Below are positions 5,729 through 31,905 of a stretch of DNA of 32,000 bases, in pieces (position 1 is the stretch's first letter; every line of letters starts with the position of its first letter). Source of the DNA: Candidatus Saccharimonadota bacterium (GTDB taxonomy: Bacteria; Patescibacteriota; Gracilibacteria; BD1-5; UBA6164); NCBI GenBank assembly GCA_965229705.1, contig OZ245922.1, positions 870,001-902,000 on the forward strand. The letters are read 5' to 3'. The translations under genes and the position numbers were made by a program. The notes beneath the pieces were generated by a model that searched no databases, had not been told where the DNA came from, and saw only the letters and a list, made by a program, of their open reading frames with translations.

Positions 5729-5826
5729 GGAAACTCTGAGAAAGTTCTTTTCTCTCTCCTTTTCAAAGGAGAGATTGCTCGGTAGAGCTAGAGTAGATTG
5801 GAAGATGTCTGTCTTTCAGAGCTTCC
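5729..5826. repeat. Structured intergenic repeat, copy 1 (second copy at 17185..17280).
   Basis: About 75% identity over about 96 nt. Outer helix CTCTGAGAAAG/CTTTCAGAG. Inner hairpin CTCTCCTTTT-CAAA-GGAGAG. Second hairpin GCTC-GGTA-GAGC. Confidence 0.6.
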
Positions 5827-5992
5827 TTAAAAGAAGCACCGAAAGAATGGAACAATGTATAAAAATACCCAAAGGGCATAAACTTTGTAGTTCAAGGAAA
5901 ATGCAACTTGTCTGAAATAAGCGTACTTACTTGTACGAGTTTGAAGACAATGTTGCACTTTGACGATGAAATACGAAGTTTTTATACATTTT

Positions 5993-13805: not shown

Positions 13806-13947
13806 ATTTTTTGTTTATCATCTTCGGGTCTCATCCTTTTAGCTTATCGCAAGAAAAAACTCCTTGAACTGCTCGATTTTAAACAAAAATTATAATAAAC
13901 TTTTTTAAAAGGCTGAGATGCTGATTTCAGCACTTCAGCCTTTTTAT

Positions 13948-14024
13948 GTCACTATAGCTCAGTTGGTTAGAGCGCAGGATTCATATCCCTGAGGTCGGTG
14001 GTTCAACTCCACCTAGTGACACCA
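13948..14024 (+). tRNA. Elongator tRNA with CAU anticodon (Met or lysidine-Ile2; not resolvable by eye), CCA encoded.
   Basis: Acceptor GTCACTA/TAGTGAC, D-arm GCTC-AGTTGGTTA-GAGC, anticodon loop TTCATAT (A31xC39 mismatch), T-arm GGTGG-TTCAACT-CCACC. Confidence 0.8.
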
Positions 14025-14541
14025 ATTTTATACAAAAAGCTAGTGGGAGTTGAGTGGAGGCACTGATTTCCAGTCTGCGCGAAGCGCAAAGATGGAAATT
14101 GATTGCGAGGAATACGAGCAATCACCGACGGTCTGAGAGCTACTGCTTGTGAAGCAAGTTGTAGCGAAAGACAACTCCACCTAGTGACACCAATTTTATA
14201 CAAAAAGCTAGTGGGAGTTGAGTGGAGGCACTGATTTCCAGTCTGCGCGAAGCGCAAAGATGGAAATTGATTGCGAGGAATACGAGCAATCACCGACGGT
14301 CTGAGAGCTACTGCTTGTGAAGCAAGTTGTAGCGAAAGACAACTCCACCTAGTGACACCAATTTTATACAAAAAGCTAGTGGGAGTTGAGTGGAGGCACT
14401 GATTTCCAGTCTGCGCGAAGCGCAAAGATGGAAATTGATTGCGAGGAATACGAGCAATCACCGACGGTCTGAGAGCTACTACTTGTGAAGCAAGTTGTAG
14501 CGAAAGACAACTCCATCTAGTGACACCAATTTATACAAAAA
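14004..14541 (+). repeat. Tandem array of 3 full 168-bp units plus a terminal partial copy. Each unit begins with the tRNA(CAU) T-loop-to-CCA segment plus 16 nt of trailer.
   Basis: CAACTCCACCTAGTGACACCAATTTTATACAAAAA recurs at 14004, 14172 and 14340. A slightly divergent copy at 14508 has CCATC instead of CCACC and one T fewer. The three units look identical by eye. Confidence 0.9.
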
Positions 14542-14542
14542 A

Positions 14543-14579
14543 TAGTTCTTAGTTACTACTAACCAAGAACTATTTTTTT
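14543..14579. terminator. Bidirectional rho-independent terminator.
   Basis: AAAAAA-TAGTTCTTAGTT-ACTACT-AACCAAGAACTA-TTTTTTT. Overlaps the stop codon of the minus-strand CDS. Confidence 0.75.
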
Positions 14580-15640
14580 GTCAGTAATGACAGTCTTTGA
14601 TAAGCTGCTTGAAGAGGAGGAAATTGAGAGCACCTTTCCATGCTCAGTCTAATACTCTGTAGGTTGACATTGGTAGCATCCAAATTTCATCCTCTTACTT
14701 CTCTTACAATATCGTTAAGTATCGTTTCTCGAGCAAAATTTCCTTTTGTGTCACCTTCTTCTTTATTTGCTATTATATCAAATAGTCTTATAGCCTCATC
14801 AACATTTAATGGTTGTATAAGTGTATATCTTCCTCAATAAGTTAAGGAGTCTATTATATCTTTTACAGGCTTCTTTATAAACTCTTCAAATGATATTTTT
14901 TGTACATGGTTATGTACTTCTGTTTTTACTTCTTCAGTGGTTTTTTCGACTTTATCTGCGCCATATGTCTCGTATAAAAATATGAGAAAATCATAACGTC
15001 TCTTATACGCGAGCTGCAGTTTATTTCAGTCTTCATGTTTAGTGAAAGGTAGGAGGTGAGCAAAAAAACTGTATCATTGTCAAAAAAGTCATCAATCTAT
15101 TTTACACTCTTCTAAAATAATTTTGGACCAATTATTATTGATATCTTCTTGAGTCAGATTCTTTAACCATTTTGCATATTTTTGTAGATTTTCAGAAAGT
15201 TTTTTCATAGCATCACGTCATCATTTGAATTCATCTTGATAGCTTTTTTGTTGTTTTGCAAGGTTAGTATTTAATAACTGTAGTGCTGTATCTAACTTTC
15301 ATTTGTACCAGGTGATTCAGAGGTCCATTTTTGGTATTCAATACCCCATTTTTGCTGCGAAATCTCCATGTACCTCGATATGATAGTTTATATCAAAAGA
15401 GTGAGAATTGCCTTCTTTAGAGTAAGAACATGTATCAGTGATAAACTCTGGTCATCACGTAGTTCCTTCCCGAATACATGATACTATATATGTTATAATT
15501 TCATCATTTATATCCTCATGAAAGAAACTCCGTATCTCTTCATTAATTTCAAAGTGTAGTATACGTTTCTTTAGTGATGATTTTTGTAGTTTTTTTTCTC
15601 AAGAATTCTCGTGTACTTTGGGTTTTTCCATTTTATACAT
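14570..15640 (-). CDS. Hypothetical protein (356 aa), no recognisable family.
   Basis: Open from ATG 15640 to TAG 14570 with about 20 in-frame TGA codons. Translation MYKMEKPKVHENS(G)EKKLQ...HLLPFTKHED(G)NKLQLAYKRRYDFLIFLYETYGADK...; the frame was spot-checked codon by codon over 14990-15058. Confidence 0.55.
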
Positions 15641-15754
15641 TATTTAATCATAATGTAAATTATTATATCATGCACTAGTAGTTATGTCAAATTTATTGAT
15701 TATTTTAACATCTCTTATACACTCTATTTTTAAGTATTTTTCAAAAGTTAGAAA

Positions 15755-17113
15755 ATGTTCATCGACGAAGTTTCCATTCATGTAATTGCAGGGAAAGGCT
15801 GAAATGGTCTTGTATCTTGGCGTCGAGAAAAATATATTCCCAAATGAGGACCATGGTGATGAGATGGATGAAATGGTGGAAATGTGATACTTCAGGCAGA
15901 TGAAAATATCAATACTCTCAGTGAATACCGACACAAAAAAGTTGTGCGAGCACCAGACGGAGAGTGAGGAATGCCAAATCTTTGTCATGGAGCAAATGGA
16001 GAAGATAGAGTCTTGAAAATCCCCGTATGAACACTCGTTCGGGATGAACAAACCCGAGAAATCCTCAAAGATTTTCAGCAACATGGAGAACAATATTGTA
16101 TTGCTCGAGGCTGACGAGGATGATATGGAAATGCGCACTTCACAAGCTCAACCAGACAAGCCCCTGCCTTTGCGGAGCTTTGAGATATTCCTGAAGAAAA
16201 GCATATATATCTTGAACTCAAGCTCGTGGCTGACGTCGGAATTATTGGTATCCCGAGCGCTGGAAAATCAACACTTATTTCAAAACTTTCAAACGTAAAA
16301 CCCAAGATAGGAGACTACCCTTTTACAACTCTTACACCAAACCTTGGAGTACTGGAACATAAATGAAAATCTCTCGTGCTCGAAGACGTTCCTGGACTCA
16401 TTCCTGGTGCAAGTGAGGGAAAGGGGCTTTGAATAGAGTTTTTGAAGCATATTGAACGCACATGAGTTCTCTTACATCTCATAGATTTATACAGATTAGA
16501 TCAGGTTTTTACTGATTATAGTGATATTCGACATGAGCTTGAACAATTCTCTGAGGATCTTACATGAAAACAAGAAATATTTGTCTTTTCAAAAGCAGAT
16601 TTGTTGGACAGTGAAATGAAAGAGCACATCATCTCTGAATTTCGAAAAAAATACCCAGAAAGGGAGTACTTTGTTATTTCAGCTGCGACAGGAGAATGAA
16701 TTGAAGAACTCAAAGATTATCTCGCATGAAATATCTCTCCGATACAAAATGAAATCTCAGATGAGAAGAGAGAAGATATAAAAGTCTATGATCTTGAACA
16801 CCTCTCAGAAGATCCTAAGAAAGTAAAAATTACATATGAATGAGATATGGTTTTCCGTGCAAAGTGAGCAAGACTAGAACAAATTGTGCGTATGACAGAC
16901 TTTGAGAATAGAGAAGCTATTATGAGAGTATATGATGTGCTTGAGAAAATGTGAGTGATAAGGGAGATAGAGAAGAAGCTCGCAAGTATTCTCGAAGATC
17001 AAGATATAGATAATAGTTTCTTTTTTGAGGGTTCAGAGGAGAATAATATATTACCAAAAATTTGTATTTGAAACAGGGAAATTCCTCTTGAGAAGTTGAA
17101 GTATAATTTGTAG
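15755..17113 (+). CDS. obg: GTPase Obg/CgtA with a C-terminal Obg_CT-like domain.
   Basis: [15 protein letters not shown](G)[13 protein letters not shown](GG)P.(GG)DGGNGGNV; G-domain [26 protein letters not shown]. More than 25 in-frame TGA codons. 452 aa; TAG at 17111. Confidence 0.93.
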
Positions 17114-17184: not shown

Positions 17185-17280
17185 GGAAATTCTGAGAAAC
17201 TTCTTTTTTCTCTCCTTTTTCAAAGGAGAAATGGCTCGATAGAACCAGAGAGGATTAGAAATTTTCTATTTTTCAGAACC
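17185..17280. repeat. Structured intergenic repeat, copy 2, in the obg-prfA spacer.
   Basis: Aligns with 5729..5826. Its outer helix is TTCTGAGAAA/TTTTTCAGAA, with C>T on one strand matched by G>A on the other relative to copy 1. Confidence 0.6.
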
Positions 17281-17346
17281 TACCTGAAGTACATGAAGCT
17301 ACAATATGTTTCTGAACTTATATAAACTTTTACACTCTTTGTTAGC

Positions 17347-29237: not shown

Positions 29238-29312
29238 TCCTCCGTAGCTCAGCGGTAGAGTAGACGGCTGTTAACCGTTTGGTCACTGGTTCGAATCCAG
29301 TCGGGGGAGCCA
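29238..29312 (+). tRNA. tRNA-Asn (GUU), CCA encoded.
   Basis: Acceptor TCCTCCG/CGGGGGA, anticodon stem GACGG/CCGTT, loop CTGTTAA, T-arm ACTGG-TTCGAAT-CCAGT. Confidence 0.88.
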
Positions 29313-29516
29313 TTTAAAATAGCACGAGATTGGCATTAGAGTTTTTCATACTTTATGTTTCTGACTGGATGAGAAGTTTATGCCCCGCAGGGGTAAATCC
29401 AGTCGGGGGAGCCATTTAAAATAGCACGAGATTGGCATTAGAGTTTTTCATACTTTATGTTTCTGACTGGATGAGAAGTTTATGCCCCGCAGGGGTAAAT
29501 CCAGTCGGGGAGCCAT
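29294..29516 (+). repeat. Two tandem 102-bp units plus a terminal partial copy. Each re-creates the tRNA-Asn 3' end (AATCCAGTCGGGGGAGCCA).
   Basis: AATCC.. copies at 29294, 29396 and 29498. The terminal copy has GGGG instead of GGGGG and a different trailer. Confidence 0.9.
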
Positions 29517-29572
29517 AAAAAATTATCCTTAATTTCCCCTCTCCTTTGAGGAGAGCTTTGGAATAAGGTTTT

Positions 29573-29662
29573 GGAGAGATGGCTGAGTGGTCGAAGGCAA
29601 CGGTCTTGAAAACCGTCGAGGCTTCCGGGTCTCCCAGGGTTCGAATCCCTGTCTCTCCGCCA
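29573..29662 (+). tRNA. tRNA-Ser (UGA), long variable arm, CCA encoded.
   Basis: GGAGAGATGGCTGAGTGGTCGAAGGC.., anticodon stem ACGGT/ACCGT, loop CTTGAAA, T-arm CAGGG-TTCGAAT-CCCTG. Confidence 0.88.
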
Positions 29663-29790
29663 TTTTAATATCACAAAGAGTTATTTTATAGTTTTCGTGA
29701 TAGATTGTAGAGAAAATGTGGGATGAGAAGTTTATGCCCCGTAGGGGTAAATCCCTGTCTCTCCGCCATTTTAATATCACAAAGAGTTAT
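29644..29790 (+). repeat. One 106-bp unit duplicating the tRNA-Ser(UGA) 3' end plus 22 nt of trailer.
   Basis: AATCCCTGTCTCTCCGCCATTTTAATATCACAAAGAGTTAT occurs at 29644 and again at 29750. Confidence 0.9.

Positions 29791-30430: not shown

Positions 30431-31905
<1,475 letters not shown>

Follow-up and report, generated by a model that had tools for sequence, protein, structure and literature searches.

A tandem repeat that begins inside a tRNA gene and ends ahead of that gene's terminator raises the question of whether it is a spacer, a folded DNA substrate or a gene for a structured RNA, and of how it came to be there. In the window analyzed here, by which we mean the whole stretch of 32,000 nt, Tandem Repeats Finder reports such an array at 14004-14541 (168-bp period, 3.2 copies, 99% matches). 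The array starts inside the T-loop of tRNA-Met(CAT), its units lie directly 3' of this tRNA and on the same strand, and it is placed between tRNA-Met and the terminator of the tRNA. Units 1 and 2 are identical, and unit 3 has two substitutions. The first unit (14025-14192) consists of a 15-nt AU-rich linker, a 132-nt core that includes a 5' arm, and a 21-nt tRNA copy. The part that is not a tRNA copy spans 14025-14171 (147 nt) and is followed by CAACTCCACCTAGTGACACCA, which corresponds exactly to tRNA positions 56-76. A single homologous unit was found on the metagenome contig PDWI01077156.1 (L071), in which the 21-nt tRNA tail occurs twice, 166 nt apart. With this homologue for comparison, the locus comprises the following features.

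13948-14024, plus strand: intact tRNA-Met(CAT) (ARAGORN; Rfam tRNA, 67.8 bits)
14004-14024, plus strand: first direct-repeat copy, i.e., the final 21 nt of tRNA-Met
14025-14039, plus strand: AU-rich linker ATTTTATACAAAAAG, recurring at 14193-14207 and 14361-14375 and found in the L071 element as ATTTTATACAAAA
14040-14052, plus strand: 5' arm CTAGTGGGAGTTG, complementary at 11/13 positions to the T-loop, the T-stem 3' strand and the start of the acceptor 3' strand
14053-14064, plus strand: junction AGUGGAGGCACU with conserved UGGAGGC (alignment with L071)
14065-14100, plus strand: P3, an 8-bp stem, a GUC/AAGA internal loop and an inner hairpin with a GAA triloop (GCGAAGC)
14101-14123, plus strand: P4, a GAUUGC stem with the 11-nt loop GAGGAAUACGA, 100% conserved in L071
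14124-14132, plus strand: possible 3-bp mini-hairpin ACC-GAC-GGU (RNAalifold), the stem of which is invariant and hence without covariation
14133-14170, plus strand: P5, a 2-bp outer helix, an internal loop (GAGA/GAA) and a hairpin of 5+5(6) bp that has a U/U mismatch and a UGAAG loop
14172-14192, plus strand: copy of tRNA positions 56-76, comprising the 3' arm CAACTCCACCTAG and the predicted free tail TGACACCA
14193-14541, plus strand: units 2 and 3, followed by a partial fourth linker of ~13 nt (ATTTATACAAAAA)
14537-14579, downstream of all units: AT-rich terminator hairpin, ancestral to the tRNA and kept in L071, L072, and L083-L085

The tRNA-tail copy recurs at 14340-14360 and, in a degenerate form (CCATC), at 14508-14528. 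Scored with a covariance model, the three copies of the unit reach 188.4, 188.4, and 187.3 bits. Because the linker is present in the L071 element and missing from the trailers of empty sites described below, we consider it part of the element and not of the ancestral trailer. The tRNA-Met itself is 100% identical in L068-L072 and L083. A terminator-like hairpin (AAAAGGCTGA...TCAGCCTTTTT; 13907-13946) is located a few bases upstream of the tRNA-Met 5' end and is kept in relatives.

The 147-nt span was originally predicted to be GC enriched, and we measured 46.3% GC for 14025-14171 and 50.0% for the core (14040-14171) versus 34.5% for the background outside RNA genes and 35.7% for the window overall; in the rest of the window, the cutoff of 47.6% GC is reached by only 1.3% of 147-nt windows. 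The three hairpins that had been proposed by eye are present exactly as written, at 14065-14100, 14101-14123, and 14133-14170, and the proposed complementarity of the 5' end is equally there, with CTAGTGGGAGTTG pairing with CAACTCCACCTAG at 11 of 13 positions around a 2x2 mismatch in the center. The unit RNA has a predicted minimum free energy of −60.2 kcal/mol, while dinucleotide shuffles have a mean of −40.3 kcal/mol (z −5.26; 0 of 200 as good), and z is −6.31 for the core and only −3.55 for the reverse strand of the unit. The original prediction had named shuffled controls as a check, and on the plus strand the unit folds far better than these controls (z −5.3 to −6.3). Using DNA parameters, folding is significant on both strands (z −5.3 and −4.0). 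In the predicted fold, the 3' tail UGACACCA is unpaired, and the acceptor strand is paired over only 4-5 bp. The minimum-energy fold also adds a 4-bp helix (AGUG/CACU) at the junction (14053-14064); as this helix has no support from the L071 homologue, we take the four-helix junction as the conserved picture.

Homologues with compensatory substitutions had been put forward as a further check, and the L071 unit is one such homologue. It is located at the same tRNA-Met, with the same terminator and in the same orientation as in the window. The two units are 81% identical and the flanks about 71%, and the element is therefore better conserved than its flanks. We counted covariation between these two independent sequences, the window unit and the L071 unit, on the RNAalifold consensus. 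Each of the 44 consensus pairs is retained in the window unit and in the L071 unit; 8 pairs have double compensatory changes, 3 have single changes of the G-U type, 0 are broken, and all 19 paired positions that differ between the window and L071 still pair. In the control, in which the 3' partners were slid by 1-3 columns, 27-38% of positions paired and 0-1 compensatory changes were seen. The double compensatory changes map to the P3 stem (2), the P3 inner hairpin (1), and P5 (5), and the G-U-type changes to P3 (1) and P5 (2). Within the array, the sole within-helix substitution of unit 3 is a G>A change in P5 that converts a G-U pair into an A-U pair. G-U pairs are restricted to the tRNA-sense strand; together with the site upstream of the terminator in both carriers, this indicates an RNA that is cotranscribed with the tRNA. 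On this comparative evidence and the folding energies, the unit is a real structured single-stranded nucleic acid, and the strand asymmetry and the position upstream of the terminator favor RNA. The original prediction, that the unit is a structured RNA or a folded-DNA recombination substrate and not a spacer, thus holds for the structured single strand and less so for the DNA substrate, since the G-U pairs and the orientation favor RNA.

The helix proposed to close the unit, between the 5' arm and the T-arm 3' strand in the tRNA-tail copy, is present in the minimum-energy folds of both homologues. Its six inner base pairs (GAGUUG/CAACUC) show no change in L071, and its outer part has drifted differently in each homologue with pairing retained. 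However, this helix is unable to covary because one of its strands is fixed by the tRNA copy, and its energy is nonspecific: among the duplexes with all 8 tRNA tails, the GC-rich cargo of the Met unit reaches −17.3 kcal/mol with its own tail and −18.2 kcal/mol with the tRNA-Glu tail. As the helix cannot covary and its energy is no better than with unrelated tails, the modeled closure of the unit by the 5' arm and the tRNA-tail copy is plausible rather than proven. The 5' arm had also been expected to have two possible partners, the tail copy before it and the one after it, and the calculations agree, with the alternative junction hairpin scoring −15.0 kcal/mol. For the tRNA plus one unit, the fold with the junction hairpin (−89.3) is predicted to be slightly more stable than the cloverleaf plus the closed unit (−86.3).

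The distribution of the unit was followed in the tRNA-Met locus of about 17 distinct Gracilibacteria lineages, collected by six 21-mer pattern matches and by look-ups of homologues of Obg and of the upstream HTH protein. The scan with the tRNA 21-mer gave four genome loci, all with a single copy, and two metagenome loci, one of which is occupied (L071); about 20 further loci reached via Obg and HTH-protein homologues are all empty. In the empty loci (L067-L070, L072-L073, L077-L079, L081, and L083-L092; about 16 related lineages), only an AT-rich trailer of 10-25 nt separates the tRNA from the terminator. Judged by the flanks, which share 70-72% nucleotide identity with those of the window, all lineages, including L071, are about equally distant, and the site is empty in L072, the nearest relative of L071 in the set. 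In L071, the second tail copy runs directly into the local terminator, and the linker of the element follows the first copy only, which is the arrangement expected from insertion of a donor "tail + linker + core." The left edge of the repeat is in the T-loop, and its right edge is variable (22 nt in L071, about 36 nt for Met in the window, and 41 nt for tRNA-Ser), which argues against a fixed-length target-site duplication. At the level of aligned loci, these comparisons show the 147-bp unit as an insertion ("cargo") that is precisely missing in related genomes.

The surroundings of the array vary as well. The tRNA-Met-obg interval (14580-15755 in the window; L073-L079 and L083-L084) contains a different small gene from one relative to the next (DUF1706, TerB_N or unannotated ORFs of 130-170 aa) or no gene, which suggests that it is a local hotspot for gene insertion. 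In the window, a 356-aa ORF (code 25; 14570-15640, minus strand) lies between the array terminator and obg. Among 1.8 billion representatives, it has, beyond itself, one weak homologue (E 2.6e-15, 29% identity) and a partial match that is weaker still (E 1.3e-05), and no family was assigned to it in Pfam, PHROG or PADLOC. We considered this ORF as the enzyme of the element and rejected it, as it is an orphan and is missing beside the L071 element. In a "Peribacteria" MAG (L067, 2337-2614), an unrelated tandem repeat of 131 bp, with 2.1 copies at 100% identity and without a tRNA-tail copy, lies behind tRNA-Met. The metagenome contigs L073, L077, and L080 break inside the tRNA-Met gene, which might reflect repeats or strain variation.

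Two further tRNA genes in the window are followed by comparable units. tRNA-Asn(GTT) (29238-29312) is followed by a 102-bp unit in 2.3 copies (29294-29523), each of which terminates in a copy of the last 19 nt of tRNA-Asn, with the final tail copy lacking one G. Between the 5' arm of the Asn unit, GUUUCUGACUGGAU, and the tail, 13 bp can form, four of them G-U pairs. Downstream of tRNA-Ser(TGA) (29573-29662) lies one 106-bp unit (29663-29790) that is flanked by a 41-nt direct repeat made up of the tail and 22 nt of trailer. The Asn and Ser units are paralogous over their whole length and have in common the 34-nt module GGATGAGAAGTTTATGCCCCGYAGGGGTAAATCC, for which no Rfam, phage or viral match was found. 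The last part of each unit duplicates its own tRNA from A58 through CCA, and the arms of each match the respective local tRNA. Among the 36 tRNAs scanned and the loci of relatives, a downstream copy of the own tail was detected only for Met, Asn, and Ser(TGA) in the window and for Met in L071. From these arms and tails we infer a general architecture, a structured insert on a helix with the T-stem/acceptor 3' strand of the host tRNA and with a CCA end, that seems to be common to the Met, Asn, and Ser units.

Because the window genome reads TGA as sense (Obg and other ORFs are intact only under table 25; the closest protein relatives are annotated as Candidatus Gracilibacteria) and 168 is divisible by 3, the array is free of stop codons in one frame per strand under code 25 (13948-14541; 193 and 187 codons). 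We judge these frames to have arisen by chance. Three observations led us to reject a protein-coding repeat: ATG is missing from the stop-free frames, the homologue has a length of 166 nt, and the changes are mostly nonsynonymous, with differences at 13 of 49 residues. An origin of the cargo from the 5' part of the tRNA (D and anticodon arms) was likewise discarded, with alignments no better than those of shuffles (z 0.8, −0.03, −0.5, and −1.05); a weak match of the covariance model on the tRNA (16.9 bits) is mainly due to the common 21-nt tail and to the D-loop AGUUG against the 5' arm. An integron attC-like junction hairpin (RYYYAAC...GTTRRRY) fits, by eye, the first tRNA junction only and not the Asn/Ser units, and this reading was therefore dropped.

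Searches for known families gave the following picture. Using Rfam 15 with cmscan at the gathering threshold and at E ≤ 10, the region 13900-14620 returned only tRNA and chance matches, and the Met and Asn arrays returned nothing beyond tRNA and rRNA. No covariance-model match to hammerhead, HDV-like, twister, twister-sister, pistol, hatchet or hairpin ribozymes was obtained at E ≤ 10, and this search thus gives no support to self-cleavage. ARAGORN detected only the 8 tRNAs of the window and no tmRNA, and Rfam detected neither tmRNA nor YrlA. In phage, plasmid and viral-contig collections, blastn and pattern scans were negative or gave chance matches only, and the exact 43-mer of P5 had 0 matches in metagenomes. 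A Pfam scan of 11 window proteins (neighboring and unannotated ORFs) identified no recombinase/integrase, HUH enzyme or reverse transcriptase. A literature search on tRNA-linked tandem structured repeats in Gracilibacteria and the candidate phyla radiation returned nothing relevant.

Several known systems resemble the array in part. Small RNAs from 3' external transcribed spacers, such as 3'ETS-leuZ of E. coli, are functional RNAs that lie between a tRNA and its terminator and are freed from the precursor. The unit has the same placement, on the strand of the tRNA and ahead of the terminator; unlike the unit, 3'ETS RNAs are short unstructured trailers that are not known to be mobile or tandem or to have a copy of the tRNA end. 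The tRNA-like RNAs include the tRNA-like domain of tmRNA, the Y RNA YrlA, and the stable RNAs "species 1 and 2" encoded in the tRNA cluster of phage T4. With these, the unit shares a structured RNA with acceptor/T-arm-type ends, CCA, and a location among tRNA genes. However, the unit has neither a complete acceptor stem nor a T-arm with a T-loop, and its free tail of 7-8 nt is a literal copy of the neighboring tRNA. This comparison draws on PMC4201824 and on general background. The ToxI arrays of type III toxin-antitoxin systems are also tandem structured-RNA repeats followed by a terminator, but they have a repeat of about 36 nt compared with 168 nt here. No same-strand toxin gene lies downstream of the array; its terminator is followed by the minus-strand orphan ORF described above, which has no Pfam, PHROG or PADLOC family. 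Retrons have an adjacent reverse transcriptase, and no RT domain was detected in the 11 window proteins scanned.

We propose that the array is a tRNA-anchored ncRNA module, cotranscribed with the tRNA, with a multi-hairpin fold that is probably closed on the tail copy, that entered by recombination in the tRNA 3' segment and later multiplied through unequal crossing-over; taken as a whole, we give this explanation about an even chance of being correct. The array would be transcribed together with tRNA-Met, and each unit would fold into a roughly four-way junction, with the 5' arm on the copy of the T-arm/acceptor 3' strand and the ...GACACCA tail free. The tRNA-like end may give the unit a defined, exonuclease-resistant 3' end and possibly access to tRNA-processing enzymes, as in a natural "tRNA scaffold." At the DNA level, the module would have come from a donor that carried the tRNA 3' segment and recombined with the chromosome in this segment, and unequal crossing-over between the 21-36-nt repeats would have expanded it to three copies. 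Points against this explanation are that the covariation comes from two sequences, that no enzyme for insertion is seen among the 11 window proteins scanned, that DNA-parameter folding is significant on both strands, and that a double-stranded DNA circle of 168 bp would be out of the ordinary as a recombination donor. As to function, our best guess is a small, stable RNA whose invariant loops, UGGAGGC and GAGGAAUACGA, bind a partner, either protein or RNA.

A direct repeat from the T-loop to CCA next to a regenerated tRNA is the classic signature of tRNA-targeting integrases, and the array could instead be a miniature DNA integrative element, i.e., an attP-bearing unit or a collapsed island remnant placed at the T-loop by a tyrosine integrase acting in trans, with the hairpins as features that act as single-stranded DNA or bind protein and the RNA incidental. 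In common with integrative elements of this kind, the locus has a direct repeat of the tRNA 3' segment from the T-loop (C56-A76, 21 nt, for Met; from A58 for Asn and Ser) to CCA, an intact regenerated tRNA, an unoccupied site in ~16 loci of relatives, and tandem copies, which such elements can form; the tRNA-to-obg hotspot with different small genes in different relatives and the DNA folding (z −5.3 and −4.0) also fit. We nevertheless regard this reading as decidedly unlikely. No integrase is found in the unit, which has no start-codon ORF, in the 11 window proteins scanned or in L071, and the cargo of 147 bp is noncoding with a conserved RNA fold. The right edge of the repeat varies, the cargo directly left of the repeat lacks the inverted core-site partner, and the three different tRNA targets within 32 kb would require several specificities. 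The one-sided G-U-type changes and the strand asymmetry suit RNA and not duplex DNA sites, and the phage, plasmid and viral-contig searches were all negative. Alternatively, the unit may be a resident, nonmobile small-RNA gene of the tRNA operon, comparable to a 3'ETS RNA, that arose by one partial duplication of the tRNA 3' end, descended vertically and was lost many times by deletion, with the array as a product of slippage. The two carriers agree in locus and orientation, their flanking intergenic DNA can be aligned too, the 21-nt repeats ease precise loss, and the compensatory changes imply long purifying selection; repeated loss of an old gene by deletion between the 21-nt repeats would explain the patchy distribution equally well. 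We still think this history unlikely: it needs many independent losses over about 16 lineages, including L072, the nearest to L071; the L071 unit, with its second repeat copy followed by the local terminator and no element linker, has the pattern of an insertion from a foreign donor; and the arms of the paralogous Asn/Ser units, swapped to match the tRNA at each site, imply that units have moved from one tRNA gene to another.

Movement could also have passed through RNA. Reverse transcription primed by a tRNA or initiated at CCA is known from retroviral primer-binding-site biology and from the Neurospora retroplasmids, and a full tRNA followed by n x (insert + final 19-21 nt of the tRNA, with the T-loop as the boundary) is the product expected from it. 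The array would then be the footprint of a small, possibly circular RNA with a CCA end or a tRNA primer-binding site that was reverse transcribed and recombined as cDNA at the tRNA, rolling-circle copying or template switching accounting for tandem cDNA; the head-to-tail arrangement with a partial last unit ending in an A-run agrees with this. Against it, the window proteins scanned include no reverse transcriptase, the selected structure is on the plus strand whereas a tRNA-primed template would be the minus strand, and no ribozyme or circularization signal was detected, which makes such an origin very improbable. That each unit cuts itself from the tRNA transcript as part of a self-cleaving ribozyme array is barely credible to us. 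The head-to-tail units of ~170 nt beside a tRNA, with possible unit-length structured RNAs, recall satellite-DNA hammerheads, retrozymes and theta ribozymes, the tandem structured unit beside the tRNA is presumably transcribed, and the P5 motif CUGAGAG...CGAAA is superficially hammerhead-like. However, no ribozyme core was detected (no Rfam ribozyme family at E ≤ 10), and the CUGA/GAAA letters are not conserved, L071 having CGGGAG...GUGAAG. [quoted passage not shown] In the array, by contrast, the unit does not abut the tRNA end, since CCA and the 5' arm are separated by the 15-nt AU linker, and its conserved helices form nested hairpins around a junction and no double pseudoknot. Finally, the units might be very small noncoding mobile elements that are transcribed from the tRNA promoter, released by the tRNA-processing machinery as a tRNA-tailed, structured (possibly circular) RNA and reinserted behind the cognate tRNA via the copy of the 3' end, with either a reverse-transcription step or a single-stranded intermediate that recombines. 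We lend little credence to this life cycle, which would account for the tandem arrays and for arms that match each host tRNA.

With regard to novelty, duplication of a tRNA tail is already known. For a covarying, noncoding 147-nt RNA fold as the sole tandem cargo, together with sister elements on other tRNAs of the genome, we found no description; on our best reading, tRNA-3'-end-anchored structured ncRNA modules form a new family. If the tRNA-anchored ncRNA module is the correct explanation, a reduced, recoded Gracilibacteria genome would carry at least two families of structured RNA that ride on tRNA genes, with use of the tRNA promoter and terminator and of a duplicated tRNA 3' end. They would add a covariation-supported RNA family in a phylum with almost no described ncRNAs, provide a natural counterpart of the engineered "tRNA scaffolds," and raise the question of how a 150-nt noncoding sequence inserts behind its cognate tRNA and multiplies without a visible enzyme of its own.

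Elsewhere in the window, a 72-nt direct repeat occurs at 5760-5831 and 17217-17288 (75% identical, 11.5 kb apart). The 16S rRNA 3' end (31890-31905) reads ...GGACUAUCUCCUUA instead of the usual ...CACCUCCUUA, which gives an altered anti-Shine-Dalgarno, and the conserved loops of the element hold GGAG/GAGGA.
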